Source: Candidatus Bathyarchaeota archaeon
GTDB lineage: Archaea; Thermoproteota; Bathyarchaeia; Bathyarchaeales; Bathycorpusculaceae
Assembly: GCA_963720565.1 (NCBI GenBank)
Contig: CAVRFW010000013.1
Coordinates: 74,419 to 138,418 of the forward strand
Direction: 5' to 3'
DNA length: 64,000 nucleotides
The notes under the pieces are model-generated. The model saw only the letters and a list, made by a program, of their open reading frames with translations, ran no database searches and had not been told where the DNA came from. This document shows positions 24,619 through 63,462 of this stretch, one piece after another; positions within the stretch are counted from its first letter, which is position 1; every line of letters starts with the position of its first letter. The position numbers and the translations under genes were made by a program.

Positions 24619-24843
24619 CACGCAAAAGGGGTGTGAGGTGGGGGTTCTTCGGACGAAGATCATTCCAGGCATATGGGTTAAGGCAAATAAAACGCCGTCT
24701 TTTCTTGCCCTCAACCCCTGCTTCGCCGGGGGGCTTCGGGCAAAGCAGTGAAGGGCAGCCATAAAAAAATCCGCCGCCTTTATGTTCGTGTATTAAATTT
24801 TATTTTCTTTGTAATATTCCCGCGCGCGCCATAAGAGATATTA

Positions 24844-26994
24844 ATGTTTTGCATTAATACAAGCCATCAAATGATGGAGAGGGCAGGTTTGTTAAACAAA
24901 GTAGTGCTAACTGTAATGTTAGTATTTTCTTTGGTTTCAGTTTTATTGTTTAGTGCTCCCCAAGTCTTTGGCTTAATATCTGACGGATCAATGGAATGGA
25001 ACAAAACATACGGAGGGAGCTACTCTGACCTGGCTCAGTCGATGGTTTTGACTAGTGACGGTGGATATGCTCTTGCAGGTTACACTGCGTCTTTTGGTGC
25101 TCGCTACAATGATTTTTGGTTGGTTAGGACTGATTCGTCTGGTAATGAATTGTGGAGCAAGATGTACGGAGGAACAGGCGATGATCAAGCTTGGTCTTTG
25201 GTTCAGACTGGTGATGGTGGATATGCACTAGCAGGTTACACGAACTCTTCTGGTGCTGGTGACTATGATTTTTGGTTGGTTAGGACTGATTCGTCTGGTA
25301 ATGAATTGTGGAGCAAAACCTACGGAGGGGCACGCTATGACGGGGCTGAGTCGATGGTTATAACTAGTGATGGTGGATTCGCTCTCGTAGGTTACACTAT
25401 ATCTATTGGTGCTGGCAACAATGATTTTTGGTTGGTTAGGACTGATTCGTCTGGTAATGAATTGTGGAGCAAAACCTACGGAGGAACAGGTTATGACTAT
25501 GCTTTTTCTGTGGTTCAGACTAGTGATGGTGGATTCGCAATAGCAGGTTTCACAAACTCTTTTGGTAGTGTCACGCCTGATTTCTTGTTGGTTAAGACTG
25601 ATTCGTCTGGGAACCAGTTGTGGAGCAAGACGTACGGAGGAACAGGCGATGATGAATGTGTTTCTGTGATTCAGACTAGTGATGGCGGATATGCACTAGG
25701 CGGTTGCACAACCTCTTTTGGTGCTGGCGATAGAGACTTTTGGTTGGTTAAAACAGATTCTGCTGGCAACCAATTATGGAGCAAGACAATCGGAGGAGTA
25801 TACTCTGACGGGATTGAATCGATGGTTCAGACTAGAGATGGTGGTTACGCTCTTGCATGTTACACTTTGTCTTATGGTGCTGGCAGATATGATGGTTGGT
25901 TGGTTAAGACTGATTCGTCTGGTAACGAATTGTGGAGCGAAACCTACGGAGGAACAATAAATGACTATGCCTCTTCTATTGTTTTGGCTAGCGATGGTGG
26001 ATACGCCTTAGCAGGTTTCGCAAGCTCTTTTGGTGCTGGCATCTATGATTTTTGGTTGATTAAGGTTGCATCTGTTGTTGTTCAGCCTCCAACGTTTAGT
26101 CCTGTGGGTGGTAGTTATGGTTCGGTTCAGACTGTGACTATCGGTTGTTCTACTGGTGGCGCGACCGTGAGGTATACTACTGATGGTTCTGAGCCTTCGG
26201 CGACGTCAACGTTGTATTCGGGTCCATTCGTGGTGAGTTCTTCGATGACGATTAAGGCTAAGGCTTTTAAGAGCGAGATGATGGACAGTGACACGGCCAC
26301 GGCAACATACGCCATCAATCTTCAGGAGAAAGTTGCTACTCCAACGTTTAGTCCTGTGGGTGGTAGTTATGGTTCGGTTCAGACTGTGACTATCGGTTGT
26401 TCTACTGGTGGCGCGACCGTGAGGTATACTACTGATGGTTCTGAGCCTTCGGCGACGTCAACATCGTATTTGGGTTCTATCGCAATTAACGTTACGACTA
26501 CGGTTAAGGCTAAGGCTTTTAAGGATGGGATGGTTGACAGTGAGACAGCTGCGGCAACATACACAATTAATCTTCCTGTGAAGATTCCAGCTCTAACATT
26601 TTTCCCTGTGGGTGGTAGTTATGGTTCGGTTCAGACTGTGACTATCGGTTGTTCTACTGGTGGCGCGACCGTGAGGTATACTACTGATGGTTCTGAGCCT
26701 TCGGCGACGTCAACGTTGTATTCGGGTCCATTCGTGGTGAGTTCTTCGATGACGATTAAGGCTAAGGCTTTTAAGAGCGAGATGATGGACAGTGACACGG
26801 CCACGGCAACATACACAATTAATATTGTAACGCCGTCTCCAAATGGAGGTGCTGTATCTTCAGCAGTAATTTATGCTGCCATTATCATAGTGGTAGCAGC
26901 CATAGTGGGAGTAGTGATACTGTTGCTCAGAGAAATGAAACCCAAAATGTCATTGAAGCAGTACACAACGAAACCGAAACTGAAAAAAGATTGA
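24844..26994 (+). CDS. surface protein: 52-aa beta-propeller repeats, 3 chitobiase/Fn3-associated domains, TM anchor
   Basis: WSKTYGG...TSDGGYALAG...DFWLVRTDSSGN repeats (156-bp period) and PTFSPVGGSY...VRYTTDGSEP repeats (252-bp period). Confidence 0.88.
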   Translation: MFCINTSHQMMERAGLLNKVVLTVMLVFSLVSVLLFSAPQVFGLISDGSMEWNKTYGGSYSDLAQSMVLTSDGGYALAGYTASFGARYNDFWLVRTDSSGNELWSKMYGGTGDDQAWSLVQTGDGGYALAGYTNSSGAGDYDFWLVRTDSSGNELWSKTYGGARYDGAESMVITSDGGFALVGYTISIGAGNNDFWLVRTDSSGNELWSKTYGGTGYDYAFSVVQTSDGGFAIAGFTNSFGSVTPDFLLVKTDSSGNQLWSKTYGGTGDDECVSVIQTSDGGYALGGCTTSFGAGDRDFWLVKTDSAGNQLWSKTIGGVYSDGIESMVQTRDGGYALACYTLSYGAGRYDGWLVKTDSSGNELWSETYGGTINDYASSIVLASDGGYALAGFASSFGAGIYDFWLIKVASVVVQPPTFSPVGGSYGSVQTVTIGCSTGGATVRYTTDGSEPSATSTLYSGPFVVSSSMTIKAKAFKSEMMDSDTATATYAINLQEKVATPTFSPVGGSYGSVQTVTIGCSTGGATVRYTTDGSEPSATSTSYLGSIAINVTTTVKAKAFKDGMVDSETAAATYTINLPVKIPALTFFPVGGSYGSVQTVTIGCSTGGATVRYTTDGSEPSATSTLYSGPFVVSSSMTIKAKAFKSEMMDSDTATATYTINIVTPSPNGGAVSSAVIYAAIIIVVAAIVGVVILLLREMKPKMSLKQYTTKPKLKKD

Positions 26995-38860: not shown

Positions 38861-39019
38861 AGCTACAAACTGAGCTACGGTTACCAATTAAAAGCTTAGT
38901 GCGCGCGCGAACGTCCCCCTACGGGAACCTTGCTGGCAGTTTTCTGCATAGCACCCATTCTAACCCGCCCGGTTTCTTTTAATAGGATACTTTGCCAATT
39001 ATTGATGGGAGTAATAACT

Positions 39020-47122: not shown

Positions 47123-47661
47123 CTCCGCATGCGTTTTCTCGTTTGTCACTGCTCGTTCAAGATCGCCTTTAACTTGTTTATGAACTCTAATGCTAGCCAG
47201 GGGTTATACCAAACCATCTCGAAAGTCGGCGCGTTGTCAACTTGCTTCTTTATGCATGTACGTAGTAAATCATCATCACCTCATCCTATCTTTGTCCCTC
47301 CCAAATTGTGCAAAATGGATTCTTTCCGGATCACCAGGCTGATCTTGTAGGGTGTCTTGAACGGTGAAGTTTTACTGCGCATTGCCACTGTTGGAAGGCC
47401 ATTAACAGTCTTATCCAAATCTAAAACTATGACTTGGTTGTGCTGCTCGAACTCTTTCTGCTTGCTCAGCTTCCGGACACGCAAACCTTATAGTCGAGGC
47501 ACGAGACTAGACCGCAACGGGAAACCAAGTAGCCTTGTTCAAGCCCGAATTCCTCAAACCCATTATGGAAGGCAAGAAGACTCAGACGAGCGCGCGCTAT
47601 GCTTCTGCCAGTATGACATAGGTTTTTAATTTGCCAAAACTAACCTCTATCCAAGATAAGA

Positions 47662-48948
47662 TTGACAATAAGTTATGTTTGCAGAAAATGTGGCAAAAGC
47701 CACTCGAACCAGGAATATGATGAGAGTAGATTCTGCCAAACTTGTGGCTCATTCCTCCTTTCGAAATATGATGTGGACCGCAGCCAGACTCTCTCTAAAA
47801 ACAGAAGTTACGCAGAAGAAAACAAAATCTCGCAGGAAAGAACCGCAAAAACCAAAAAAGATGAGAAAAACGCTTCTGCATTAGTACGCGTAGCTCAGAG
47901 GTTAAGAGAGAGAGTTACAGGCTCAAGAGAGTACAAAGTAGTTTCGGATTCCGCAGCAAAACCCTCAGAACCAATAACCCCGCCAGTTGAGAGTTGGATA
48001 TGGAACTCAGAATATGACGACGCGCTAAAACTTGAACGCGAACTCATCAGCAAGTTCAAAGAGAAAAGCCTTGAAGAAGCAATACCCGGAAACACAATTT
48101 CAAACGAACAGGGCGAATGCTATTCAATCTCAACCACTTGCGTTGCCAGATTCAACCAGGCAAGCTACGAAAAAAGCAGACAACTCCTAATCTCCGACCT
48201 CAAGATAATCCCGGCATCGGTCCAGCAAGAGAACACGCCCTCAAGCAGCAAGGCTACACGACCATAGAAGCACTCACAAATCATCCGATTTGGAATAAAC
48301 CAGCACAGAAATTCATGCAGCTAATAGACTCGAAAGAAATCGGATCAGCGCAAGACTGGTTGTGGCATCGCCTTCCAAAATCCCACCCATTAGCTCACTA
48401 TTTGGCAGGCTTATGCAGCTGCGAAGATTTCGCCATAATTGACATCGAAACCCTCGGGCTCTCCGAAAGACCCATAATCCTAATGGGAATAGCCAAACCA
48501 ACAGGGAAGAGCATATGCACAAGTCAGTTTCTGCTTCGCGACATACCCGATGAGCCAAGCGCAATATGGGCTTTAATATCCAAGCTGGAGCCACATTCTT
48601 CTCTCATTACCTTTAACGGAAGAAGCTTTCGACATACCGTACATAAAACAAAGACTCGCCTACTACGGCATGGACGCATCCTTCAATAACCCACACTTCG
48701 ACGTTCTCCATTTCACCAGAAGAGCACTGGGCAAGAAACTAACCGACTGCCGTCTCGAAACAGTCGAAAAATACCTAAACATCGAAAGAGAAATAAACAT
48801 ACCTGGCGCAATGGTTCCCCACTTCTATGACACCTACCTAAAAACCAGAAACGTTGGACCTCTCGTCGCCATTGTCGAGCACAACAAGCAAGATCTCATC
48901 ACCCTCGGAAATTTGTTCTCACGACTCTACGAGGAATGGGACTTATGA
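47662..48948 (+). CDS. YprB/MrfB-like DEDD (RNase H-like) exonuclease with N-terminal Zn ribbon; frameshifts near 48210 and 48630
   Basis: CRKC..CQTC; PGIGP HhH-like motif; IIDIETLGL, ITFNGRSF(D), HFDVLH, HNKQDL. Confidence 0.8.
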
Positions 48949-51217
48949 TTGACGAATTCATCAGAAACATCAAGAGAAGTAGTTCCTACAAAAAGCAAAT
49001 TGCACATTTAGAAGTAATCCCTCCCCAAGAAGCAAACTACGGCGAATTAGAAAAAGCCTTACCGGCAAATATTCAAAACTGCCTTATCGACAGAAAAATC
49101 CAGATTATACTCGCACCAAGCCGAAGCGATAAACAAAGCCCGACAAGGAAAAAACATCGCAATAGTCACCCCAACCGCTTCTGGAAAGACTTTAGCTTTC
49201 AACATTCCTGTCTTAGAAGCCATCAACAAAGACCCAAAAGCGACTGCGCTCTACCTCTATCCCACAAAAGCCCTCACAAACGACCAGCTGAAAGTTCTCA
49301 AAGAAATGGAAGAAGAAACAGGTCTTGAAGTCTGCCCAAATGTCTACGACGGAGACACCCCGACAAGCCAGAGATCATAGCATACGGGAAAACTCCAAAA
49401 TCATCCTCACCAACCCATACGGTCTCCACCAATATCTCCCATGGCACTACAAATGGCGAACCTTCTTTCAAAACCTCAAATTCATAGTAATCGACGAAGC
49501 GCATGTTTACCGAGGAGTATTCGGCTCCAACGTAGCAATGCTCCTAAGACGCCTATTAAGAATCTGCAATCACTATGGCTCAGACCCGAAGAATCATACT
49601 GTCATCAGCAACCATAGCAAATCCAGAAGAACACGCCAAGAAACTCACGGGAAAAGACTTTGAAATCATCTCAACCGACGGTGCCCCACGAGGAAAAAAG
49701 ACCTTCATGTTCTGGAATCCGCCCTTCATCGATGACGCCAACACCATTCGCCGCTCCACTCACCAAGAAACCAAAGACCTGCTGGAACTCAATATCCTAA
49801 ACAACCTTCAGACTCTATGCTTCACCACTTCGAGGCAAATGGCAGAACTAATCACAAGATGGACAAAAGAAGATTTCCGCAAGAAATCGCCAAGACTGGC
49901 AGACTCGGTGACAGCTTATCGAGCAGGTTACCTGCCCCAAGAAAGAAGAGAAATCGAGAACAGACTGAAAAACAAAAACCTGATCGGAGTCGTATCCACA
50001 AACGCCCTGGAACTAGGCATCGACATAGGCTCTTTAGACTCAGTCATTATCTCAGGATATCCAGGCACAGTCATCTCAACTTGGCAACAAGCTGGAAGAG
50101 CAGGCAGAGGCAAAACCGACTCCCTCGTTACCATGGTAGCCTTCCAAAACCCCCTTGACCAATACTTCATGAAAAACCCAAAAGACTTCTTCGGCAGACC
50201 ACACGAACAGGCCATAATAGACTTGCATAATCGCTACATTTCCTTAGGGCACCTAATGTGCGCTGCATGCGAACTGCCAATCACAGAAGACGACCGCAAA
50301 TATTTCCCTGAACTCTTCCATGAAAGCCTCAAAGCACTCGAAGAGCAAACCCTCGTTCGCAAGACTCCCAGAGGCTGGGTCTATTCCGGAACAGCAAGAC
50401 CAGTTGAAATCGTAAATCTGGAAAGCATATCTGACAAAACCGTGACAGTCATCTGTGACGGAAACATACTTGAGACTTTAGCGCTAACCAAGGCCTACGA
50501 AGAAGTACATGAAGGCGCAGTCTTGCTCCACCAAGGCGAAACATACATCTCCGAAGAACTGAACCTGAAGAGCCTAACAGCAAGAGTCAGAAAAGAAGAT
50601 GTCAACTACCACACCGAAGCCATGAAAACCGTGGACATATCAGTGAAAAAGGTTCTGGAAGAAAAGCAGAATGGAATCAGAGTGGGAATTGGGGAATTAG
50701 ACATAACAGAGATCTACCACGAGTTCTTGGTCATGACATACGATGAAATCACAGGACGGCATCCTCTTGATTTGCCGCCGCTGAACTTTTCCAACCGTGG
50801 GCATGTGGTTCATAATTCCCGACGAAATCAGAGACGAAATAGACAGCAAAGGACTCGATTTCGAGGGAGGAATTACACGCCGTTGAGCATGCGATGATCG
50901 CGATGTCACCAATCTACGCAATGTGCGACAGATGGGATATTGGCGGTCTCTCAACACCAATGCATCCAGACACTGGGCACCCTACTATTTTCATTTACGA
51001 TGGCTTTGAGGGTGGAATCGGAATTTCAGAAACCCTCTATGCCAAGATTGAAGAACTTTGGGAAAAAACACTGCAGCTAATCAGCAATTGTGAATGCAAA
51101 GACGGCTGCCCCTCTTGCATTTATTCACCAAAATGCGGAAACGAGAACGAACCATTAGACAAAAGAGCGGCGATTGACATACTGCAAAAACTGCTAAAAA
51201 TTATTGAGGAAAGATAG
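48945..51217 (+). CDS. DEAD/DEAH helicase with DUF1998 (YprA/MrfA/Hrq1 family); several frameshifts
   Basis: [74 protein letters not shown] overlap with the exonuclease. Confidence 0.9.
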
Positions 51218-51283
51218 CATAGGACACGCAGTTTTGCCTGGAACAACGCGCGCGCTTGGTTGGTTGGACTAAAATTTTACCTT

Positions 51284-51448
51284 TTACTCCCCTTTCTCAA
51301 ATAGCAGATAATGATTAGTGCCCAAGGCTGGTGCCGCATTTCCAGCACAAGCATATGTATGCAGATGCCAACCTTCTTTTTCCCAATCCTTGATTACTTT
51401 GCCAATATTGTCATGATGCCCAACTAACACACACTTCCACTCTTTCAA
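51284..51448 (-). CDS. 54-aa conserved small protein (DUF4177-like), copy 2
   Basis: MKEWKCVLVGHHDNIGKVIKDWEKEGWHLHTYACAGNAAPALGTNHYLLFEKGE*; SD GAGGTGA; not in the ORF track. Confidence 0.75.
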   Translation of the reverse strand: MKEWKCVLVGHHDNIGKVIKDWEKEGWHLHTYACAGNAAPALGTNHYLLFEKGE

Positions 51449-51725
51449 AACAATCACCTCTCAAACAATCTTTGGAACGCAAAATTTTGTTATATTGTTC
51501 TTAGCTTAAATCACTTGTGATGAAACGTGAGCTTCAAAGAGCGTATACTCGATTCCGACTATACCTATACCCCATATTGATATTGAATTGAACTTGTATC
51601 TACGGATAGCCTACATCTTGACAATACCATAGTTATCACCTGTATAGCCTGAATCCTGTATACACTCTAAATCAACGCTGTTTTCTGCAAACTCACACAA
51701 TAGTTGTACGTTCAGTTGTTGGTTG

Positions 51726-51756
51726 GTTGGTTGGACTAAAATTTAATCCAACCAAC
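51726..51756. promoter_or_regulatory. 31-bp near-perfect palindrome upstream of osmC
   Basis: gttggttggactaaa-a-tttaatccaaccaac, 14/15 arm match; the left part is repeated at 51256-51277. Confidence 0.5.
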
Positions 51757-51836
51757 GTGGTTTTATTTCAACGTATATCTTGTTACTGTGTGACGACAAT
51801 CACATTGCTTTATAGTCTTGATTCAAAATAGTGTAA

Positions 51837-52415
51837 ATGGTGATTATTTTGGAAAAGAAAATTGTTAATGGGATATCAGTGGAACAGATTCAAGGAATGA
51901 TTGACGCAGTCAAAAAGCAACCGCAGATGGCACAGGGTAAATTGTTCGCCAAAACCGTGTGGAAAAGTGGTTTCAATAACGAGGCTTCGATAAAGGACTT
52001 TATGCTTGGAGGAGCAATGAACACAACTAGTAGAACAAGCCCATTCATTGTTGCGGGAGACCATCCACCTGAGCTTCTGGGCACTAATAAGGGAGCTGCT
52101 TCGGTGGAAGTGCTTTTAGCTGCTCTTGGACACTGCATATCTAACGGGTTCGCAATGTATGGAGCTGCTATGGGAATCACAGTAGAATCCGTCACTATTG
52201 ATGTAGAGGGAGACATAGACTTGCAAGGACTGCTTATGTTGCCTGAACCTGGAAAAGTGCGACCTGGCTTCCAAGAGATTCGAGCTACATACTATGTTAA
52301 GAGTAACGCACCAAGAGACCAGCTTGAGAAGCTGGCAAAGATGTCAGAAGACTTTTCGCCAGTAAGAGACTCGTTGAGAGCAGTCAAGTTCTCCTCGAAA
52401 CTAATAGTGCAGTAG
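51837..52415 (+). CDS. OsmC family protein
   Basis: VNGIS..., DHPPELLGTNKG..VEVLLAALGHC, VEGDIDL.G, RPGFQEI, SPVRD. Confidence 0.88.
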   Translation: MVIILEKKIVNGISVEQIQGMIDAVKKQPQMAQGKLFAKTVWKSGFNNEASIKDFMLGGAMNTTSRTSPFIVAGDHPPELLGTNKGAASVEVLLAALGHCISNGFAMYGAAMGITVESVTIDVEGDIDLQGLLMLPEPGKVRPGFQEIRATYYVKSNAPRDQLEKLAKMSEDFSPVRDSLRAVKFSSKLIVQ

Positions 52416-52425
52416 GGGAAGAAAA

Positions 52426-52770
52426 TTGGTTCTACAAAAAAAGAATTTTCAGAATCCTGATGAGACTCAGACTCCTCCAAATGCAAAGGTAGAGAACATC
52501 AGAATAGGAGACATGACGGTATTGAAGGTAACTTATCAACCCGGATGGCAATGGTCAAAACACCAGAAAGCCCTTGCTGGAACAAATTCCTGTCAAGTGC
52601 ACCATTTCGGAGTCCTAGTCTCAGGTAGATTGCGTGTGAGAGCGGACGATGGCCAAGACATGGAATTCAGCCCTGGAGATGTAGCTGACATTCCACCAGG
52701 ACATGACGGCTGGACCATCGGAAACGAACCTGCAATCTTCTATTGGTTCAGCAAAACAAACCCAAAGTAA
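52426..52770 (+). CDS. cupin domain protein
   Basis: PDET..., QPGWQWS, SCQVHH.G..VSGRL, PGDV..IPPGHDGW. Confidence 0.88.
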   Translation: MVLQKKNFQNPDETQTPPNAKVENIRIGDMTVLKVTYQPGWQWSKHQKALAGTNSCQVHHFGVLVSGRLRVRADDGQDMEFSPGDVADIPPGHDGWTIGNEPAIFYWFSKTNPK

Positions 52771-52774
52771 ACTA

Positions 52775-52803
52775 CTCGCCCAGTAAGGGGCGAGCATCTT
52801 TTT
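52775..52803 (+). terminator. hairpin plus U-tract terminator
   Basis: ctcgccc-agtaag-gggcgag followed by a T run. Confidence 0.5.
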
Positions 52804-53090
52804 CTAAAATTTTAGAATATATTTTCTTGTTCATTTTATTTGCGTGTGTTTTTTGTTTGTGTGTTTTTTGTAGATAGAGGGTTAGTAGGAGAGTAGGAGA
52901 TAGTTAGAGTTAGTTTGGGTTTGGAGCGCGCGCTGTCCATGCTACTAATGAAAGAATAGACCGCAACGCAGAGGATATAGCAGAGGGCTCCTCGAAGGCG
53001 CAACGGAGTACAAAGAAAACCAGCTTTTTGCGAACTATGGAAATGTTCTCCTCCGCGGGAATAATGTTCTCTACATTGTTTTAGACGTAA

Positions 53091-53996
53091 CTAAGCACTA
53101 TACTCAAACCTGCGGGTTTTTCCGGTTACATAATCCAAAACTTCACTGCTCTCAGTCTTGATGCTGAACCTTCGAGCAAAGAACTTTAACACACAATTCA
53201 CGTCTCGCGCTAGCAACTCCTTAGCGTTCGGATGATCCGTACGCACAGCCTGAGGCCAGTCAATAATCAAGATTTTCATATTGGGTTCAACGATAATATT
53301 GTACTCGCTTAGGTCTGCATGAACCACCCCTGCTTTTATGTAAGCTTTGCGCACGTTCAACATCACCTGCCTCAAGACCCTCGCTGGCGTAACGAGTTTT
53401 TTCCAGCGCGTCAGCTCTCCGCCTTCGATCATGCCCATCACAACCACATGGCGATTCTGGCTTAAAGGCTCAGGTACTGCAACTCCTACGCTATAGACGA
53501 GTCTCATGACGTCATACTCTTTCTCCGCAGCCACACGCGACTGAAAAAGCCAACTCGCGTGCTCAGCAACATAGCCGCGTTTGCGTCTTGTCTGCCTGAA
53601 ACTCGGTCTGCCCAGCCTGTGAAACTTTACCGCCACTCGCTTGCCCTCGGAGGTCAGTGCGTCGTAGACATCAGCTTCTTTTCCAACGCCAAGTTTATGT
53701 CCGAACCCCTCGATTAACCCTGCCTTGACAAATGCGTTGATTGCTAAACAATCATACCCTACGTAATTCAGCGTGTAGCCCAGATAAGGGCGTCTCATTT
53801 GCCGAATCAAGCCAAGTTTTTCAAGTTCCGCGAGCGCAAAGGTGACTCTATCCGAGGGCAACGCGGCAAACTTGACGATTTGTTCTTTAGGGACAAACTC
53901 GCGTTCGCTCATTGCTGTTTCAACGACTTGCAACACCCTCAAATCTTCGCTTCTCAGCTGACGAAAAACCTGAACAGCTTTTTCAGCAAACGACAT
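53091..53996 (-). CDS. rio2: RIO2 family serine/threonine kinase
   Basis: N-terminal wHTH, GVGKEADVY, VKFHRLGR.SF, VHADLSEYNI, IIDWPQ. Confidence 0.92.
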   Translation of the reverse strand: MSFAEKAVQVFRQLRSEDLRVLQVVETAMSEREFVPKEQIVKFAALPSDRVTFALAELEKLGLIRQMRRPYLGYTLNYVGYDCLAINAFVKAGLIEGFGHKLGVGKEADVYDALTSEGKRVAVKFHRLGRPSFRQTRRKRGYVAEHASWLFQSRVAAEKEYDVMRLVYSVGVAVPEPLSQNRHVVVMGMIEGGELTRWKKLVTPARVLRQVMLNVRKAYIKAGVVHADLSEYNIIVEPNMKILIIDWPQAVRTDHPNAKELLARDVNCVLKFFARRFSIKTESSEVLDYVTGKTRRFEYSA

Positions 53997-54442
53997 TTGA
54001 CAACAATAACGTGCCAATTACTAATAAGAGTTAGAGTTATCCAAGAGAGCCCCCTTTGAGCTCAGTTTGCTTGTAGCCGTCATCGTACTCCAAAGCATGC
54101 TTGATGTCACGTTTGTCTAAGGCATTTGATAGTTTTAATGCAAGCACGCTGTGTGGGTGTGCACGCACCAATCTATACGCACACTAGCGCGCGCTCTGTT
54201 CTGCGACTTAGCACGCGCTTCAGTATCTATCTTCTGCAAAATGTAGCATTCTCTTCAAGCGCGCTAATGTACAAAAAAGTTTATTAGAACCGCACAGCAT
54301 GTGTGTGTTGCTCTTAAAAATTGGAGACTATTTTTCGAGTTGGATGATCCAACATCAGGGGAACTGAAAAGTTTGAGAAGATTCCCATTCGAAAAGCGCA
54401 TTCACATGAATATCGTTTCGTAATTAAACTTGCGGGGGATAA

Positions 54443-57400
54443 ATGACTTTGACTGAACTTTCGAAAGAAGATACCCGTATATTATTGAAGACTTTCTTCA
54501 ACGAGAAAGGATTAGTTAGACAGCACCTCGACTCCTATAACGAGTTCATCGACCATGGCTTGCAGGAGGTAGTGGATGAGGTTGGCGAAATCAATATTGA
54601 AGTTCCTGAAAGTCCGTACAAGGTGAAGTTTGGACAGATCTGGGTGATAGATCCTCAATCGAGGATAACAGGGTCGTACGTGGCAGAAGTGGATGGCACT
54701 AAACACGAGATTTACCCCATGGAGGCCAGGCTCAGGAACCTTGCATACGCCGCGCCAGTGGCGCTTGAAATGACGCCCGTGATAAATGGGAGAGAGCAGG
54801 ACACTGAGCTTGTTTACATTGGAAAGATTCCTGTTATGCTCAAATCGAAACTTTGCTTTTTGGGGCAACTCTCGAAAGAAGAGCTCAGGGCTGCTGGGGA
54901 AGATCCCGACGATCAGGGCGGCTACTTCGTGGTCAACGGTTCTGAACGAGTAATAGTGGCTATGGAAGACCTGGCACCCAACCGCATACTTTGCGATATA
55001 GACGAGAAAGGAACTTCGCCTGTTTATCAGTCTAAAATATTCTCAACTACGGTGGGTTTCAGGGCAAGAATCGAGTTGAAATTGAAGCCTGACGATGCGA
55101 TATACGTTTCCATGCCAGGGGTGCCAACAGAAATTCCCCTCGTAGTTATTATGCGCGCGTTATCCGTGGAAAAAGACAAAGACATAGCTGAAGCCGTTTC
55201 ATTCGACCCAAATATCCAAACTGAATTGGGTTCGTCTTTTGAAAAAGCCCTCGGCGTAGATACCCCCAACGACGCCATACTATTCATCGGGAACCGCGTA
55301 GCCCATGGACAAGTTGAAGAATACCGCATTAAGAGGGCAGAGACATCTCTTGACAACAACTTTTTGCCGCATGTGGGCAGAAGCGAGAAAAACAGGAAAG
55401 ACAAAGCCATCTTCCTGGGCGAGATGGCCTGCAGAGCCATCCAACTTAAGCTCGGAAGGAGACAACCAGACCGATAAAGATCATTTCAGGAACAAACGTT
55501 TGAGATTGGCTGGTCCTCTCCTCGCAGACCTGTTTAGGGTAGCATTCAGAAACTTGACTCGCGACATGAAATACCAACTTGAACGCATAGGCGTGAAGGG
55601 TCCCGTACTATCTGTCTCCGTGGCGGTGCGTCAGGGAATAATTACGGACCGATTCCAGCATGCGTTGGCGACTGGGAACTGGGGAAGAGGCAGAATAGGC
55701 ATAACCCAACTCTTGGACCGGACAAACTACATTTCTACTCTTAGCCACTTGCGCAGGCTTCAGTCACCGTTAAGCAGAAGCCAACCCAACTTCGAAGCAC
55801 GAGACCTTCACTCCACTCATTGGGGTCGTTTATGTCCAAATGAAACACCTGAGGGATCAAACTGCGGTCTGGTCAAGAACTTAGCCTTGTCCGCATCGAT
55901 CTCCATAGGCGTGAACCCTGAAAAGATAAAGCAGCTTCTTTTCGAAATGGGTACTGTTCCAGCATACGAGGCTAATCAGACCTTAAAGGTTTCGGGAGCC
56001 AAAGTCTTCGTCGACGGAAACATTGTAGGCTACTGCAGCTCGGCTAATGAGCTTGTGAGAATCTTCAGAGAAAAAAGAAGAGCCGGGGAAATCTCGACAG
56101 AAGTCAACATAACCTACTTCTCGAAACTGCAGGCTGAGGCGGAAGAGCTCCACGCCAACTGCGATGAAGGAAGAGTGAGAAGACCGCTTATAATCATTGA
56201 AAACGGAATTTCAAAGCTCCAACCCGAACATCTTGAGAAAATAGCTTTGGGCGAGTGGACCTGGGAGGACCTAGTCAAAAATGGATTGATAGAGTATCTG
56301 GACGCGGAAGAAGAAGAAAATGCCTATGTGGTCGTATCACTCGAGGGCGCCACGCTCAAACACACGCATGCGGAAATTGCAGCATTCACGATTCTCGGAA
56401 TCTGCGCTTCAACAATTCCCTACCCTGAACACAACCAGTCACCACGCAACTCTTACCAATCTGCAATGGCTAAGCAAGCAATCGGCGTTTACGGAACAAA
56501 CTTCCACAACCGCGTGGACTCACGGTCGCACATTCTGCATTACTCACAAGCGCCGTTGGTTGAAACGGAACCAATGGAAGTAATGGGCTACAAACAACGA
56601 CCAACAGGACAAAACTGCGTAGTTGCCGTCTTGTCATTTGAAGGCTACAACATGGAAGACGCCATAATCTTCAACAAAGCATCGATAGAAAGAGGCCTAG
56701 GGCGTTCCACCTTTTACAGGATATATGAAGCTGAATGCCGCCAGTACTTGGGAGGACTCAAAGACAAATTCATCGTTCCAGAACCTGGGACACGCGGATA
56801 TCGAGGAGAACAATATTATCGGCTTCTGGAGCCAGACGGCATTATTGGCTTGGAATCCACAGTTGCCGGGGGAGACGTCTTAATAGGTCGAGTCAGCCCG
56901 CCAAGATTCCTCGAAGAATACAAAGAATTCGAAGTCAAGGGACCCTCAATGCGAGACACTTCAACAGACATGCGACCCTCAGAAAACGGCGTCGTAGACG
57001 CGATATTCATCACGACATCTGGGGAAGGTAGCAAACTTGTCAAAGTTCGCGTCCGTGATCAACGCATTCCAGAATTAGGCGATAAATTTGCTTCACGACA
57101 TGGACAGAAAGGAGTAATAGGCTTAATCGTTCCTCAAGAAGATTTACCCTTTACAGAAGACGGCGTGGTTCCAGACTTAATAATTAACCCGCATGCAATC
57201 CCCTCAAGAATGACCATCGGCCAGTTCATCGAGTCACTCGCAGGGAAATGCGCGGCTGCAAGAGGCAAGCCAGTAGATGGCACAGCTTTCAGTAATGAAG
57301 GTCCAGATGAAGTACGCAAGAACCTCATAAAGCTGGGATTTAGCCATACTGGCGGCGAAGTATTTTACAGCGGCTCATCAGGAGAGAAATTTGTAGCTGA

Positions 57401-57815
57401 CGTCTTCGTAGGAATGGTTTACTATCAGAAACTTCACCACATGGTCGCCGACAAAATCCATGCTAGGGCTCGTGGACAAGTTCAAATGCTCACAAGGCAG
57501 CCAACTGAAGGTAGGGCTCGCGGTGGCGGTCTCAGATTCGGGGAAATGGAACGAGACTGCCTGATTGGACACGGCGCAGCTATGCTTCTAAGAGATAGGC
57601 TTCTTGAAGAGTCCGACAAATACACGCTTTGCATTTGCGAGAACTGCGGCCAGATTGCTTACTACGATATGAAGCAACGCAAGTACTTCTGTAAAATATG
57701 CGACGAGAAAGCCAAGGTTGCACAGGTAATAGTTTCGTATGCGTTTAAGCTTTTGTTGCAGGAGCTCCAGAGCTTATGCATTACACTTAAGATACGGCTT
57801 AAAGAGAGGGCTTAG
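54443..57815 (+). CDS. rpoB: DNA-directed RNA polymerase subunit B (unsplit Rpo2); +1 indel near 55471
   Basis: LVRQHLDSYN, GGYFVVNGSERV, CPNETPEG.NCGLVKNLA, NQSPRN.YQSAM.KQ, GYNMEDA, GDKFASRHGQKG, RFGEMERDC. Confidence 0.96.
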
Positions 57816-58105
57816 ACTGACTGAGGAACTAATCAAAGGTAGTTGACGCACGCGCTAGTGAAAAAGAAAGTATAGTTCCATCTTAGGAAATGTTTCAGGA
57901 TTGCGTGTTGAACATGGGACTGGAAATCATCATGTCCGCTGTCGCCCTGTTGCAAGCCGTCGGTATATTGTACAGGACAGCGCGCGCGGGTTCCTGTTAC
58001 GTTCCATATTTGGGTGAACCATTCGTCACGCTCTTTCTTTGTGAAGGCCCTGATAAGGCTGAATCGCCGTCAGCGTAAATTGACGTTTATCTGTCCCTTC
58101 CGGAA

Positions 58106-60274
58106 TTACACTACAAAAGGTGCAGGCTTCGGTAGCCTTCGAACCTGATTCATGAAGCTCCTGTACCAATTCTCAATTTCTGGCGATATGCTCGGCGGAA
58201 CCTCCTCCATAGCTTTCTCAAAATCGCTGAAGGTAACCTCTTTTGCGTTGATGTCTCTTCTCAAAGCGTTCATGGCGGCCTCCCTGCATACGGAGGATAT
58301 ATCGGCGCCGGAGTAACCTTTCGTCATGCGATGCTCCTTAATGTCTACATCATTTGATAGTGGCATGTTCTTCGTATGAATCTTAAAGATTTCAAGCCTG
58401 GCAGCTTCGTCGGGTTCTGGAACATAGATTAGCCGATCGAATCTGCCTGGCCTTAATGCAGCTGAGTCGACGATATCGGGCCTATTTGTCGCAGCTATAA
58501 CTATGATGTCTTCTAAGGGTATTATTCCATCCATTTCTGTTAAAAGCTGGCTGATGACGCGTTCAGTTACGCCGCTGTCGCCGTAACCCAGCCCCCTCCT
58601 TGGAACAAGAGAGTCAACCTCATCGAAGAATATGACCGCTGGCGAAGCCATTCTAGCCTTCCTGAAGACCTCTCGAATAGCCTTTTCAGACTCCCCAACC
58701 CACTTAGAGAAAACCTCCGGACCCTTAATCGAAATGAAGTTTGCCTCGCTCTCAGTTGCAACAGCCCTAGCCAGCATTGTCTTCCCACACCCGGGCGGGC
58801 CTATTAACAGTATACCCTTAGGCGGCTGAATCCCCAATCTCTTGAAGACTTCAGGATTTTTCAGTGGCCACTCAACAGCCTCCTTTAACTTTTCTTTAAC
58901 CTCCTCCAAGCCTCCCACTTCATCCCAATGAACAACCGGAACTTCCACAGCAACCTCCCTCATAGCTGTAGGCGTAATCTCCTTGAAGGCGTTCATGAAA
59001 TCATCCATCCGAACCTCCATCTTCTCCAGGACGAAGGGAGGTATTCGCTCTTCCTTCAGATTTATCTCGGGAAGATACCTACGTAGAGCTTTCATAGCTG
59101 CCTCTCTACACAAGGCGGCCAAGTCAGCACCCGTGTAACCGTGCGTCCGCTCAGCAAGCACCTTTAAGTCAGCATCACGGGCTAAGGGCATACCTCTGCT
59201 GTGAATCAACAATATTTCATGACGCCCCCGCTTGTCTGGGATCCCTATCTCTATCTCGCGATCAAACCTTCCAGGCCTCCTGAGAGCTGGATCCAAGGCA
59301 TTCGGCCTGTTTGTTGCACCTATTACTACGACATTTCCTCTACCAGTCAATCCGTCCATGAGAGATAGAAGCTGAGCGACAACCCTTTTCTCCACTTCAC
59401 CTGTAACCTCCTCACGTTTGGGTGCGATGGAGTCCAGCTCGTCTATGAGTATGATGCTCGGAGCGTTCTGATGAGCCTGTTGAAATATTTCTCGAAGCTT
59501 CGCCTCCGACTCCCCATAGAACTTACTTATTATCTCAGGCCCGTTTATTGAGGAGAAGTTTGCATCAGACTCATTCGCTACTGCTCTAGCTAGGAGTGTC
59601 TTTCCGCAGCCGGGTGGACCGAGCAGTAGAACCCCTTTCGGAGGATCTATTCCAAGCGTCTGGAAAATCTCGGGATGCCGCATTGGAAGTTCAACCATCT
59701 CCCTTATTCTTTGAATCTCCTCCTCCAAGCCTCCTAAGTCCTCATAGGTAGTACGCGGCACACTTTCAGCTTCCGCAACAGGGTCAGTCAATATCTGCAA
59801 TCTAGTATCGTGGGTCATCTTGACTATTCCTTGGGGCTGCATCTTCGCAACAGTGAACTGAACAGGATGACCAAGCATCATAACGAGCGTCTTGTCTCCC
59901 TCAACAAACGTCCTATCCATAAGTCTGTTCTTCACAAAATTTGCAAAGTCTTCGTCAACGTTCAATCGCGTATCCACTGGAGCAAGCACTATGCTCATAG
60001 CATTTTTAACTTCAGCCTTGCGAACTGCAACGTACTCGTTTATTGATACGCCGGCATTTTTACGTAAGAACCCATCGATTCGCATAACGTTTGGATCCTG
60101 GTCTTCAGAGTACGCTGGCCAAGCGATCGCCGACGTTTTTTTCTTCCCTGAGAACTCTATTACGTCTCCAGATGAAACCCCTAACTTTTGCATTGTTCTC
60201 TGGTCTATTCTAGCGATTCCTCTTGCCACATCTCTCTGTCTGGAATCCAGAACTTTCAGCTGAACTTCGCTCAA
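58106..60274 (-). CDS. cdc48: CDC48/VAT AAA+ ATPase
   Basis: N domain (RGIARID, MRIDG) and two AAA modules: [23 protein letters not shown]. Confidence 0.95.
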
Positions 60275-60615
60275 TCTTCAACGCTCCATTAAACATATTT
60301 CTGATAGAAGCATCAGAATCCTTTTTCCCCTAATCTTTCTCGTGGGCGGAAAACGCGCGCGTCTCGAACTCATAAGATTTGTCAGCTGAAATTCTACTGC
60401 CATAACTAGCGCGTGCTAGGACCTAATAGGGCGATATCTCCCGCAAACACTAGACTTAATCGGGGTTTCGCAACAAATGATGTACGCAGGCAAGTATTTA
60501 GGACTTCTTCAGTTGATAGACGAACTTCTTCTTTCTCACAGGCTTCTCGCTGATAACGACTCCGAGCGGCGAAAGATTGTGTTCAGGGGGTACGGTTCGG
60601 CGCACAAAAGCTAAG

Positions 60616-60852
60616 TTAAACTTGGGGGATAACCAGCAAGGTTAGAGTTGCACGTACATTGGGAATCATCCTTATTTTGTAAGTAATGATGTGCGTGAGT
60701 TTGTCCATGGTTTCTGCTTTCACCTTTGCCACAATATCGTAGACTCCGTACACCATTTCAGCTTCTTCCATGCCCTCAATTGCTTTTACTTTGTTCAACG
60801 CCTCTTGCAACGCCGCAGGTTCAGTGTTTATGAAGACAAAGGCTGACTCCAT
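60616..60852 (-). CDS. stand-alone Lrp/AsnC ligand-binding (RAM) domain
   Basis: AFVFINTE..., VYGVYDIVAKVKAETMDKL..I...IR....V..TLTL; SD GAGGTGA. Confidence 0.85.
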   Translation of the reverse strand: MESAFVFINTEPAALQEALNKVKAIEGMEEAEMVYGVYDIVAKVKAETMDKLTHIITYKIRMIPNVRATLTLLVIPQV

Positions 60853-61208
60853 TTTTTCACCTCTTTTGCTTATTTTTTCCCTCAACTGTTTCTTAGATTC
60901 ACAGACAGGCAAACGGACACACGCCGTTTAGCGCGGTACTCGGCAATTGTCAACAATGACGGGGCGAGGTTAGTACGAACCGTCACTATTTGTTCATCTG
61001 CCTGTCTTTTGTGCTTCCTCACAATTTCTTATTTTCTGGATGAGTTGCTTTCCAGACATTCTCGACCATTTCCGTTAAGACTGTCGTTGGGTCTTTGCCT
61101 GTGCACAGCAAACAGAACTTCTCCCAAACTTCCTTCGACACATCTACTTGTATTTGCATTATCTCACCTCTCTTCGCTTTTCTTTCGTGTTCCTCGTGGC
61201 GCGCGCGC

Positions 61209-61742
61209 TCACAGGTAAATGTTTAGTGCTTTGCTTTTTTGCATAATTCTAATCACGATTGCACACACTATCATGCTTGGTATGAGGTAGGTTCCGTTGT
61301 AGATTGCCGAGTAGACCACGGGATTCATTCCAGCGGGTGTATAATCGGCAAAGTAAACTATGCCTGAAACGAAATGGCTCATGAAACGTCCCGTGACGCC
61401 CACAACAACGCCGATGACTGGGTACTTCGGAAACAGACCTGCGAGTCCAAGAACTGCAAAAGCTAAAGGATAATCCAATATCAACTGAAAAGGATTAACA
61501 ATGAAAGCTCCGATTGCGAGGTCAACTACTCCGAATACCGCGCCTCCGAAGACACCTATTTTCCATCCTCTCCTAAGCGCCAGCCAAATGATCGGAACCA
61601 TTCCGAGATTGATAGAGCCTCCTTGTTGTAGTCTGAAAAAGCTATGGCTGATGAGGCTTAAGGCTCCTGCCAACGCCACTAAAACTATTATCTCTGCGAG
61701 TGTCTTGGTTGATAAAAACGGTTTTTGGATTGATTGGTTCAC
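61209..61742 (-). CDS. thiT: ECF-type thiamine transporter S component
   Basis: QGGSI..MVPI..ALRRG..G, Q.ILDYPLAF..LGLAG, RFMSHFVSGIVYF..Y.P.GMNP..YS.IYN. Confidence 0.9.
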   Translation of the reverse strand: MNQSIQKPFLSTKTLAEIIVLVALAGALSLISHSFFRLQQGGSINLGMVPIIWLALRRGWKIGVFGGAVFGVVDLAIGAFIVNPFQLILDYPLAFAVLGLAGLFPKYPVIGVVVGVTGRFMSHFVSGIVYFADYTPAGMNPVVYSAIYNGTYLIPSMIVCAIVIRIMQKSKALNIYL

Positions 61743-61748
61743 TGTTTT

Positions 61749-61845
61749 TTCCCTCCGCCAGTATTACCTGGTTCAGGTTCATTGGGTCGACGGCACCTTT
61801 CAGCCGTCCTCTCAGCCAGGTCGCGCAGTCCCAGCTCCCCGTTAA
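61749..61845 (-). ncRNA. TPP riboswitch
   Basis: Minus strand GGGGAGC...GCUGAGAGGACGGC..GCCGUCGACCCAAUGAACCUGAACCAGGUAAUACUGGCGGAGGGA fits the THI-box consensus, directly upstream of thiT. Confidence 0.92.
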
Positions 61846-62382
61846 CCTTGAATTAGAATATGTTATTCAGGCGTATTAGTTTTCCTATCCTCCTCCACCT
61901 TCAATCAGCACTCATCTTTTCCTACTCCTTCAACTGGAACGCGAATTGCTTCCACCGCTGACATACGTATGATACTTGACGTTAAAGACGATCTATAGGT
62001 TAAAACCTACGATGCTGATTTTGTACCCCAGGTTAGAGAGCATGCGCGTTGCCCTTTGAGAACTACGGCTTGCCTCTATCGATGAATTGTCACGTTAGCC
62101 TTGCTCCTGCCTAACCCTTTCCCCAAAGCAAGGCTCATTTCCCAGTCTCCCAGGCGACGTTTTTCGTCGTCGTCGACGCGCGCGCTATGAGATGGATGGG
62201 CAACAGGTGGAAGACCCGAGAAGGTAATTGTGTACTGTATTATTGAGCACTATTACTCTATTTCTGCAGTGGACGTTTTTGTTGCATTATTTTTGCGCTG
62301 ACTTGACTTCGCGCACGGGGCTGAAAAGGGCTCTGGATGGGAAAAAACACAGTAATTCCAAAGCGCGCTAGGAAACGAAAAA

Positions 62383-62700
62383 TCAATAGAGAATAGGCAC
62401 AGCGTTTCTGGCTTCTTCAACTATGGGCAACACTTGCTCGAGTTCTCTGAAGTACTTCAAGACTGTAATGCCCCTTTGTGTAATGGCGTAGACAACGCGT
62501 CTCTTTCCTACAGTTCTCTCTTCCACGAGGCCTTGCTTGATCAGGAAATCCAGATATTCTTCGAGCACGCTACAGTTGACGTTGGCTTTGTACATCACGT
62601 GAGTAAGTTTCAGCGGACCTCTCTGAGACAGTACCCTGAGGATGTCAACATACATTTCAAGTTTGGAGCGTCGCATATTGGATTCTTCTTTTTTAGGCAA
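62383..62700 (-). CDS. winged-helix DNA-binding protein
   Basis: RRSKLEMYVDIL..LKLTHVMYKANVN..L.EYLDFLIKQGLV..YAITQRG. Confidence 0.85.
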   Translation of the reverse strand: MPKKEESNMRRSKLEMYVDILRVLSQRGPLKLTHVMYKANVNCSVLEEYLDFLIKQGLVEERTVGKRRVVYAITQRGITVLKYFRELEQVLPIVEEARNAVPILY

Positions 62701-62905
62701 ATGTCAACAAGGCGTATTAACGATTTATGGATTTGGAATCCATGGCTTTCGCAACGCCTAGCAAAGAATTCGAGGGTTACTGACAATTCTTGGCACAGAT
62801 TCAATTCAATTCCATATAATCTGTCTTACAACATTTGAAGTTTTCTTCTCAATTTTGGAAAGAAAATAGCGCGCATGGTTGTTCCGAAATTTGGTCAAAA
62901 ATGAT

Positions 62906-63285
62906 TTATTCCCTGCTTCTATGCACCTGAGGACAGTACTGAAAGCTGCAGACTGTACTAGATTCTTTACAGTATCCGCCCTTCTCGAACCTGCACAAGT
63001 GTTTCAGTCGACTAAACGGCAAATGCACAAGCTCCATATACGGGTCTGAGAGGGCAACAGAAACCTGTTTCCTTAGCTTGGGCGGAATAGCGTAGGTGTA
63101 CTTTGGCCTTCCAGGCTCGTCAAGGGGAGACTTCTCCCGCACTAGAAAGCCCCCTTTTTCAGCAGTTTTTTGAGGTGTAGCTTGAGCGTGTTGTGAGAAA
63201 AACCCGCCTCGTCTAGAAGCTGGGTGAAAAGTTTAGGGTTTCCATCCTTGAGAACCGTGAGAATGCGCTCATCAAATACGTCCAT
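62906..63285 (-). CDS. HTH protein with C-terminal Cys cluster (frameshift near 63150)
   Basis: MDVFDERILTVLKDG..FSHNTLKLHL joined to GRPKYTY...LCRFEKGGYCK...CSFQYCP. Confidence 0.7.
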
Positions 63286-63462
63286 GGCTATTTGTATATT
63301 GGAACGGATTTAAAACCATTTTTAGCCATTTTTAGGAACAAGCACGCGCGCTACGTTAGTTTTTTTATGTTAAAGGCGTAATGTTCTATTCATGCCCAAT
63401 TATTCCAAGAAACCAATACTAACAGCTAATGATGAAGAATACACAATGCTAATTGAAGATCA

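Follow-up and report, generated by a model that had tools for sequence, protein, structure and literature searches.

Alternating (GC)n runs in this bathyarchaeal genome are joints between unrelated pieces of DNA and consist mostly of new sequence. Within the window (the whole stretch analysed, 64,000 nt), homology to paralogues and relatives stops at the runs, which supports recombination or gene capture among the explanations offered by the original prediction. The cassette-like mosaic envisioned there holds with respect to gene-capture junctions. However, no defined-site cassette system is involved, because the flanks are unconserved beyond an A beside the run, the parents are run-free, and the captured scraps are cut inside genes. 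The pieces joined include a foreign second rpoB, a second cdc48, and gene scraps of 50 to 125 bp.

All eight runs of at least 8 nt reported earlier for the right 16 kb of the window were recovered, at 47590 (8 nt), 51247 (9 nt), 52926 (8 nt), 54187 (8 nt), 57980 (9 nt), 60354 (8 nt), 61199 (10 nt), and 62177 (9 nt). Further runs lie at 24821 to 24829 and 38901 to 38909 (9 nt each, non-coding), 1294 and 63345 (7 nt each), and 38415, 54259, 62363, and 62869 (6 nt each), and the sites at 54211, 57848, and 60409 are one-transition variants. As predicted, runs inside the window's genes do not exceed 7 nt (5646 and 55153), and the region from 4.5 to 22 kb has none of at least 8 nt. The window has 10 copies of GCGCGCGC, whereas 100 dinucleotide shuffles gave 0.70 ± 0.86 and none reached 10. 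Across the whole genome, GCGCGCGC is the most over-represented 8-mer under both order-2 and order-4 models. By an HMM coding mask made for this analysis, 78 of 90 runs of at least 8 nt fall in the non-coding 22% of the genome, and the observed-to-expected ratio of the 8-mer is 12.3 in non-coding versus 0.87 in coding DNA, where the ratio for GCGCGC is 0.58. AT runs show no enrichment (0.7 to 0.9); transition variants of the run are enriched about 5-fold and ACACACAC 2.5-fold.

The proposal that a run marks almost every unit border describes the right 16 kb, the densest bin of roughly 20 kb in the genome, but not the genome at large, where runs of at least 7 nt occur in 125 of 1959 spacers. Likewise, of the 936 GCGCGC sites in the genome, counted by strand, no more than 11 have the extended GGA(A)CA context, five of these being in the window, and the context was rejected as a motif; it is mainly the terminal repeat of one mobile element, together with parent-templated chance matches such as that at 57974. 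Run density per 10 kb is 3.3 in tandem, 3.2 in divergent, and 2.1 in convergent spacers, and no fixed distance to gene starts or stops was found in the whole genome. Since there is no orientation or spacing rule and so few spacers carry a run, the runs are not transcription-unit signals, and a promoter or terminator role was discarded.

The window's junctions illustrate how the pieces meet. The run at 47590 to 47597 forms the left edge of a second genomic copy of the mrfB-mrfA block (47591 to 51237, plus strand; Pfam domains RNase_H_2, Helicase_C, WHD_HRQ1, and MZB), whose 90% nucleotide match to contig C1 of G000 begins at 47591; both copies have the run, and the sequences differ beyond it. 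The next run (51247 to 51255) lies 10 nt beyond the end of this match, and its parent could not be traced because contig C1 stops there. Behind the osmC-cupin block, the scar at 52926 to 52933 shares no letter with its parent, a 96% homologue in G146 that is run-free and diverges at 52924. The run at 54187 to 54194 stands left of a 49-bp scrap (54199 to 54247; 94% to contig C7 of G000). The scar bounding the rpoB block on the left (54259 to 54264) takes one letter from its 92% parent, L012, which lacks the run; contigs from the sequencing runs X2 and X7 have other neighbours on that side. The sister contig L013 has GCGCGC at 54259 followed by an element terminal repeat, where the window has a bare scar; this observation counts against the end-joining reading set out below.

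The block from 54264 to 57848 (plus strand) comprises a second, foreign rpoB and its promoter region; of rpoA, no more than the first ~30 nt is included. A degenerate run, GCACGCGC (57848 to 57855), fills the space between this rpoA stub and a 125-bp scrap of the 3′ end of a methylglyoxal synthase gene (57857 to 57981, minus strand; Pfam MGS; 83 to 87% to mgsA of G164). The left parent (96%) runs on into rpoA, the right parent (87%) lacks both the run and the flanking A, and the same junction is found in L013, X1, and X2. At the scar at 57980 to 57988, the left parent (G164, 87%) gives GC, the right parent (G211, 97%) gives GCG, and four letters are new. Thus, at 57848 and 57980, where both sides are resolved, the new letters are absent from both parents. 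In X7, 54264 is joined to 57980 on opposite strands, run to run. The second cdc48 block (57986 to 60352, minus strand) is 96% identical in nucleotides to G211, where it stands in tandem before an orphan rpoB, and 77% identical in amino acids to the native copy on C3. At its promoter edge lies the run at 60354 to 60361; in a contig from X9, the match ends at 60352 and different sequence follows. The scar at 61199 to 61208 abuts the thiT stop codon and takes one letter from its parent, and homologues (74 to 76%) continue run-free past this position. One parental letter is also found at 62177 to 62185, left of a 110-bp gene scrap (62185 to 62294), where paralogues (81 to 86%) and loose ends in X2 and X7 are run-free.

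The displaced rpoB and cdc48 are both second copies; the native rpoB-rpoA operon lies on C6. The orphan rpoB clade joins genus g45 with support of 99/99. The split of its ORF at ~55470 is missing from four sequencing runs, and the ORF is intact (1123 aa) in L012 and L013.

Taken over the eight resolved half-junctions of the window, the parents, which are homologues of 74 to 97% identity and not the true donors, contribute 0, 0, 1, 1, 1, 1, 2, and 3 run letters, and none has the run. Parents were not recovered for 47590 (left), 52926 (right), 54187 (left), 60354, 60409, 24821, 38901, and 1294. In the whole-genome comparison, 14 of 181 non-coding self-BLAST ends (at least 85% identity) lie within 10 nt of a run of at least 8 nt, whereas shifted controls gave 1.5 and never more than 4 over 30 draws. 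Homology was one-sided at 65 of 353 examined runs of at least 7 nt, element ends included, and two-sided at 15; none of these 15 represents insertion of a run into an uninterrupted parent without one, since 10 had kept a run and 5 showed point differences. Independent contigs carry identical joints and also different arrangements of the blocks, which in other strains are found deleted, inverted, or differently neighboured. Restriction-site fill-in was rejected, as GCGC or CGCG cutter sites are missing from the parents, and so were hairpin P-nucleotides, as other palindromes are not enriched.

The same type of run occurs in G018, G021, G030, and G002, reaches 14 to 18 nt, and is absent from 9 of 41 genomes. 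In G018 (GC 0.40; GC values are from sampled stretches, not whole genomes), 44 runs of 8 to 14 nt were counted in the 421 kb read, with a length hump at 8 to 10 and few 7s. These 421 kb gave no transposase or winged-helix (wHTH) match and one weak terminal-repeat match, and a genome-wide profile search of G018 gave no match for the element proteins described below; G030 is similar. Insertion sequences (IS) are frequently unassembled in such genomes. G030 favours T rather than A beside the run. None of the enzyme families searched, most of them in five genomes only, tracks run density (Ku, PolX, RT, extra primase, Dpo4, second ligase, and exonuclease-less PolB). Ku, present in G000 and run-poor G040, was not found in the run-rich G018, G021, and G030, which removes Ku/LigD end joining from the candidates. 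The presence of LigD-type primase or RT, also considered as candidates, does not follow the runs, nor do Dpo4 or the counts of PolB; PolX was not found in the window's genome, and a second LigI-like ligase is near-universal. Exonuclease-less PolB occurs in run-rich G018, G030, G023, G024, and G039 but also in run-poor G012, G022, and G034, and was not found in G000, G021, and G002. A C5 methylase was likewise dismissed, none being found in the run-rich G000, G018, G021, and G030. Each of the five genomes searched for PriS contains it, whether run-rich or run-poor.

A 471-bp non-autonomous element (62875 to 63345, minus strand) with ~40-bp terminal inverted repeats lies between GCGCGC at 62869 to 62874, whose inner GCGC is the putative target duplication, and GCGCGC at 63346 to 63351; in a contig from X9, the right flank has a different neighbour left of 63352. 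Copies occur on C8 and C12 of G000 and in 6 of 40 relatives. Its end type is common to DDE-transposase IS in L105 and L107, and the element is part of an IS1182/IS5-related clade. The transposase (~335 aa, DUF772 + DDE_Tnp_1, in an element with terminal inverted repeats) falls far below the cut-offs of both families: its best NCBIfam match, IS1182 (NF033551), scores 63.5 bits against 270 with a 302-aa query, and IS5 models score 27 to 36 bits against 110 to 140. The miniature has the marks of a MITE (IS-shared terminal repeats, no transposase, dispersed copies, and an empty site). Its single ORF (~62906 to 63236, frameshifted in the assembly) encodes a winged helix with a Cys motif, of which there are 611 clusters, the best 120 mostly 122 aa, with 27 invariant columns over 48 sequences; the fold is predicted to be MarR/ArsR/Lrs14-like. 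The protein was rejected as a transposase (an ordinary regulator fold, a low-confidence C-terminus, and no natural longer form); no longer natural fusion appeared among 298 candidates except two partial chimeras, and viral contigs gave a single weak match.

Ends of the clade almost all adjoin GCGC. The empty site of the window's element is a single 8-nt run (X7 and X15, a skip of 475), a comparison compatible with either insertion or loss, and a second empty site likewise bears a run. Exact GCGC stands at both ends in 32 of 36 end pairings, from which empty runs of 6 to 12 nt (mode 8) are deduced; a direct repeat outside the runs was seen in 1 of 36. Other DDE_Tnp_1 elements in G018, G013, and G003 have ends without GC. 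Of the 145 non-coding runs in G000 of at least 7 nt, just 7 adjoin an element end. TA-duplicating IS630-type footprints were rejected, as the second base out from the run shows no excess of T.

We consider it fairly probable that the (GC)n filler, which is self-complementary, is added by host end-joining and that the IS1182/IS5-related clade, with its wHTH miniature, homes into the resulting scars with duplication of GCGC. A polymerase capable of terminal transfer and of annealing over short G:C stretches, possibly the replicative primase PriSL, would extend 3′ ends, often by an A and then by G and C in alternation. Each (GC)n tail could pair with every other in either orientation, and therefore any two ends could be sealed. 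Sealing would yield deletions, inversions, and capture of foreign fragments, persisting mainly in non-coding DNA, and older runs would be reused as microhomology in later shuffling. The IS would cut the run at its centre and duplicate GCGC, thereby turning an 8-nt scar into 6 + element + 6. PriSL has terminal transferase activity and anneals on 2 to 4 G:C pairs (PMC3333859), and its repair of breaks in vivo leaves C insertions beside G or C (PMC12019639). PriSL-mediated end joining in Saccharolobus resembles the proposed pathway in Ku-independent archaeal repair, terminal transfer, and 2–4 G:C annealing. However, its indels, which favour C beside G or C, are mostly of 1 to 2 bp at one break, and the portions of the two reports available to us show no alternating GC products or (GC)n linkers, foreign capture, or patchy lineage distribution (PMC12019639, PMC3333859).

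In the main rival reading, elements instead make the runs, GCGC(GC) being the tip of the terminal repeat: a transposase would join it to weakly chosen targets, adjacent deletions and inversions would follow, and a departing element would leave a self-complementary footprint of 6 to 10 nt. Positions 1 to 5 outside the repeat body are 91 to 96% conserved over 124 ends (a figure inflated by the 4-of-6-match selection), transposases only 23 to 31% identical have a common flank, and A-G is the commonest outer flank for element ends and scars alike. About nine element ends adjoin sequence with a run-free homologue, two of them at one place inside another element's repeat; an element end lies within the ~2.5 kb separating the two 57848 parents in G164, and the difference between L013 and the window at 54259 fits as well. 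Furthermore, IS1272 of the IS1182 family deletes target DNA without duplication (PMC5678879). We nevertheless regard this origin as unlikely. Neither simple insertions nor pure footprints were seen in contiguous parents lacking a run, and a scar whose two parents are both run-free would require three events. The parts of G018 and G030 that were read are rich in runs yet hold no element remains, several element-bearing genomes show background run counts, and G030 prefers T to A beside the run. Against the end-joining reading, elements occur more often where runs are plentiful (7 of 11 run-rich versus 8 of 30 other genomes; Fisher p 0.06, with two doubtful matches and kin not independent), and element ends in run-poor genomes still have 5 to 7 GC letters.

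An origin of the runs in fragile or Z-DNA-prone sites that existed beforehand, lengthened through slippage or repair, and became places of breakage and recombination appears improbable. The enriched transition variants and ACACACAC, the lengths of up to 14 to 18 nt, the run-to-run join in X7, and two element targets that are alternating purine-pyrimidine in the homologue would suit it, but parents are run-free at 8 of 8 resolved half-junctions, the G018 length hump is unlike a slippage tail, and ordinary decay also gives transitions. This origin is already weakened; reuse of runs as break sites may occur. Binding sites for chromatin or regulatory proteins, or insulators at unit borders, are a very improbable explanation: the non-coding enrichment, the coding depletion, and the 10 runs kept between strains agree with it, yet the runs follow no orientation or distance rule, vary in length, have flanks without consensus, are missing from ~94% of spacers and from 9 of 41 genomes, and flank gene scraps of 50 to 125 bp. 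Neither the nucleoid protein or histone sites nor the Z-DNA insulators suggested previously find support, as the run is new joint sequence, not a conserved site, and its density is alike across spacer types. An assembly or library artefact from chimeric long reads is refuted by the independent contigs. The assembly does contain single-base frameshift errors, but an independent metagenome contig has identical joints at 97.7%, contigs of X1 and X2 carry them as well, the same kind of run recurs in G018, G021, G030, and G002, and the runs avoid genes and decay by mutation.

NHEJ and Pol-theta joining add filler or N-nucleotides through TdT, Pol mu, or LigD Pol. Such filler is like the runs in its untemplated joint letters and little or no microhomology; in contrast, the runs follow a single fixed pattern that is self-complementary, and neither Ku in three run-rich genomes nor PolX in the window's genome was found. 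HIP1 of cyanobacteria is, like the run, an over-represented GC-rich palindromic octamer, but the runs are coding-depleted, length-variable, and located at joints, and no C5 methylase was found in four run-rich genomes. Integron cassette arrays are mosaics of single genes between short sites, as is the arrangement here. However, both gene orientations occur, pieces are cut inside genes, no attC-like hairpin or boxes and no flank family except element ends were found at the runs, and no integron integrase is among the window proteins scanned. MITEs and passenger IS derivatives are transposase-free, dispersed, and share terminal repeats with an IS, and conserved coding is atypical for them; the 471-bp element differs in its conserved 122-aa wHTH and Cys-motif ORF. 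IS1272, a palindrome-targeting DDE element, has extragenic targets (PMC5678879), and REP-homing IS land in extragenic palindromes (PMC1525189). The clade described here, with DUF772 + DDE_Tnp_1, probably also targets a palindrome. In contrast, those elements target a stem-loop or a REP family, and the target here would be a 6- to 12-nt alternating GC run of non-heritable origin; the evidence also fits GCGC duplication, which IS1272 lacks.

To our knowledge, Ku-free end joining in most archaea is an open question. More tentatively than the end-joining mechanism itself, we suggest that some Bathyarchaeia might possess a universal-linker pathway in which (GC)n tails on broken or incoming ends seal any fragment, with an old IS clade and its wHTH miniature specialised on the scars. 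Even a foreign RNA-polymerase gene could then enter the chromosome either way round, the scars would be safe landing sites, and the small wHTH protein would bind the element's own end repeats. An end-joining signature of this kind would be readable and countable in any genome and would date rearrangements. A transposase that required nothing beyond a short GC run would serve as a compact tool for targeting, and a large family now annotated as ArsR regulators would be recast as mobile-element cargo. Joining at runs would also explain core-gene exchange across genera, as for the second rpoB and cdc48, in abundant sediment archaea.

The alternating (GC)n runs listed in the original prediction were all recovered where it had placed them, and their excess in the window is clear, with GCGCGCGC occurring 10 times against 0.7 expected. 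It is also the top over-represented 8-mer of the whole genome (2.09 Mb in 13 contigs, the window being positions 74419-138418 of contig C13). The suggested intergenic enrichment holds genome-wide: a self-trained coding mask gives an observed/expected ratio of 12.3 for non-coding DNA against 0.87 for coding DNA, and 78 of the 90 runs of 8 nt or more are non-coding. Among 41 genomes the site count is uneven (0 to 439): eleven have at least 15 sites per Mb and nine have none. Within the stretches read, the runs are chiefly non-coding in the related genomes G018 (GC 0.40), G030, G021 and G002, and mostly coding in the GC-richer G003. At loci of G030, which belongs to another family (L128-L131 and L277-L281), the outer flank prefers T over A (22 TG vs 11 AG half-sites).

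That the runs signal transcription-unit boundaries was not borne out, as they follow no orientation rule, keep no constant distance from genes and occupy few spacers. Run density per 10 kb was 3.3 in tandem, 3.2 in divergent and 2.1 in convergent spacers, no fixed run-to-gene distance was found across the spacers, and runs of 7 nt or more occur in 125 of 1959 spacers. The sole flank bias was an A before G (41% vs 20%). The runs are joints between DNA pieces, not boundary signals, and the junction option of the original prediction stood because homology ends at them: 14 of 181 self-BLAST ends fall at runs, against 1.5 expected. At eight half-junctions (single sides of a junction) in the window, the homologous parent (74-97% identity) has 0-3 run letters and then diverges. 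The run at 57980 has GC from its left parent, GCG from its right parent and four new letters; the 57848 run consists of eight new letters, its two parents lying ~2.5 kb apart in the related genome G164. Among 353 runs of 7 nt or more, 65 showed homology on one side only (element ends counted in), and none was a simple insertion into a parent sequence that is contiguous and lacks the run.

The window at 5.4-23 kb consists of long blocks matching same-genus genes at 66-87%, and its right part is a patchwork; cdc48, mrfBA, cupin and the wHTH gene at 62383 have paralogues elsewhere in the genome. The rio2 gene (53091-54017) has no close nucleotide match in four same-genus genomes, its best family matches reaching at most 75%, and was possibly also acquired. 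The gene at 18177-18740 and its paralogues at C3:89107 and C5:66787 (62-66% identical), which we take from their sequence to be TBP-like, form a set of three; the C5 paralogue has CG runs on its flanks.

The genome has two rpoB genes. The copy on contig C6, like those of ten relatives read, lies inside an rpoB-rpoA operon; the window copy (54264-57848) includes just 30 nt of rpoA before breaking off at the 57848 run, and clusters with genus g45, not with the native gene (support 99/99). Metagenome contig L013 (97.7%) carries both the 57848 and 57980 joints with a different left neighbour. No runs are present where cdc48 sequence and rpoB lie in tandem in locus L012 and genome G211. Contigs of sequencing runs X1 and X2 bridge the 57848 joint, and an X7 contig links 54264 with 57980, the two lying on opposite strands. 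The base that splits the window rpoB is missing from four sequencing runs. The joints are real and mobile. An orphan rpoB, lacking rpoA, beside a second cdc48 (57986-60352 in the window) moves between genera, being present in the window, L012, L013, L026 and L027; the L012 and L013 copies are both intact and show a dN/dS of 0.13 relative to each other. G164 and G211 each have two rpoB genes.

Following up the GGAACA context of the runs revealed a non-autonomous mobile element at 62875-63345, of 471 bp, with ~40-bp inverted repeats and one ORF with a wHTH and a Cys motif. The element has twin 10-bp subterminal repeats, and its wHTH protein measures 122 aa. Two further full copies exist in the genome, 6 of 40 relatives carry homologues, and the neighbours differ for every copy. 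The protein family comprises 611 clusters and has an ordinary regulator fold. The end types are common to insertion sequences (IS) with a ~335-aa DUF772 + DDE_Tnp_1 transposase. This GC-flanked clade, whose transposases are 23-89% identical to the first member, is related to IS1182 and IS5 and scores under both family cut-offs; its profile matches 13 of 41 genomes, two of them doubtfully. The sole match in the window's own genome is a full-length IS with one internal stop (C9:335348-336625). Of 36 end pairings (two pairings have a left end in common), 32 have exact GCGC adjoining both ends, and the inferred empty runs, assuming a 4-bp duplication, measure 6-12 nt with a mode of 8. X7 and X15 show the window element's empty site, which is a single 8-nt run, and contig C9 has a run where locus L057 has an element. 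At L054, L057, L060 and L071, elements are nested or tip-to-tip, with as little as one GCGC in common. Repeats of a (TTGG)n family, which has an inverted arm and is possibly another miniature element, lie at 51256-51280 and 51718-51760; they recur in L148, in L231 and at the end of a G018 contig.

With modest confidence, we favour a reading in which host end-joining would add (GC)n filler at the joints and a palindrome-homing IS, coupled to them, would home into the resulting scars. It is favoured because a search for an element between contiguous run-free flanks found none, because only 7 of 145 runs in the window's genome touch an element end, and because run-rich stretches elsewhere lack element remains: in G018, roughly a quarter of the genome (421 kb) has 44 runs of 8-14 nt and no remains, and 189 kb of G030 also have runs but no remains. 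We think it unlikely that the elements themselves made the runs. In favour of that reading, 5-7 GC letters stand at element ends even in run-poor genomes, run-rich genomes carry elements somewhat more often (7 of 11 vs 8 of 30, p 0.06), an element end follows the 54259 run in L013, and IS are frequently lost from such assemblies.

For the filler enzyme, the best lead is the ordinary primase PriSL. Saccharolobus PriSL combines terminal transfer with annealing on 2-4 G:C pairs (PMC3333859), and C is inserted adjacent to G or C when it repairs breaks (PMC12019639). The portions of both papers available to us describe no alternating tails, so that PriSL could make them is our inference. Neither Ku, PolX, RT and Dpo4 nor an extra primase, a second ligase, an exonuclease-less PolB and a C5 methylase tracked the trait, in comparisons of mostly five genomes. 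A ~635-aa PolB1 paralogue without the proofreading exonuclease region, its polymerase motifs retained, is present in 8 of 15 genomes checked (L298:7352-9244 in G018; L278:13821-15752 in G030). A second full-size ATP-dependent DNA ligase (C5:243577-245248 and relatives) is near-universal in the 41 genomes, the search missing it in G020, G032 and G040 among others. At C3:159800-162600 (L299), a LigD-polymerase-like ORF and a short ATP-dependent ligase flank a Ku gene.

Two further features of the window were noted. In several sequencing runs, the short stretch 61745-61920 upstream of thiT shows numerous loose ends and a very high contig depth; it is probably a riboswitch common to many genomes. 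A surface-protein gene at 24997-26826 has internal repeats of 156 and 252 bp.

In the main texts of mostly non-subscription papers, no literature on these GC runs or elements was found. The closest known systems, from the portions of the sources available, are IS1272 (PMC5678879) and REP-homing IS (PMC1525189). The feature would, we judge with some but not strong confidence, represent filler end-joining coupled to a palindrome-homing IS, in a form previously undescribed as far as the literature was searched.
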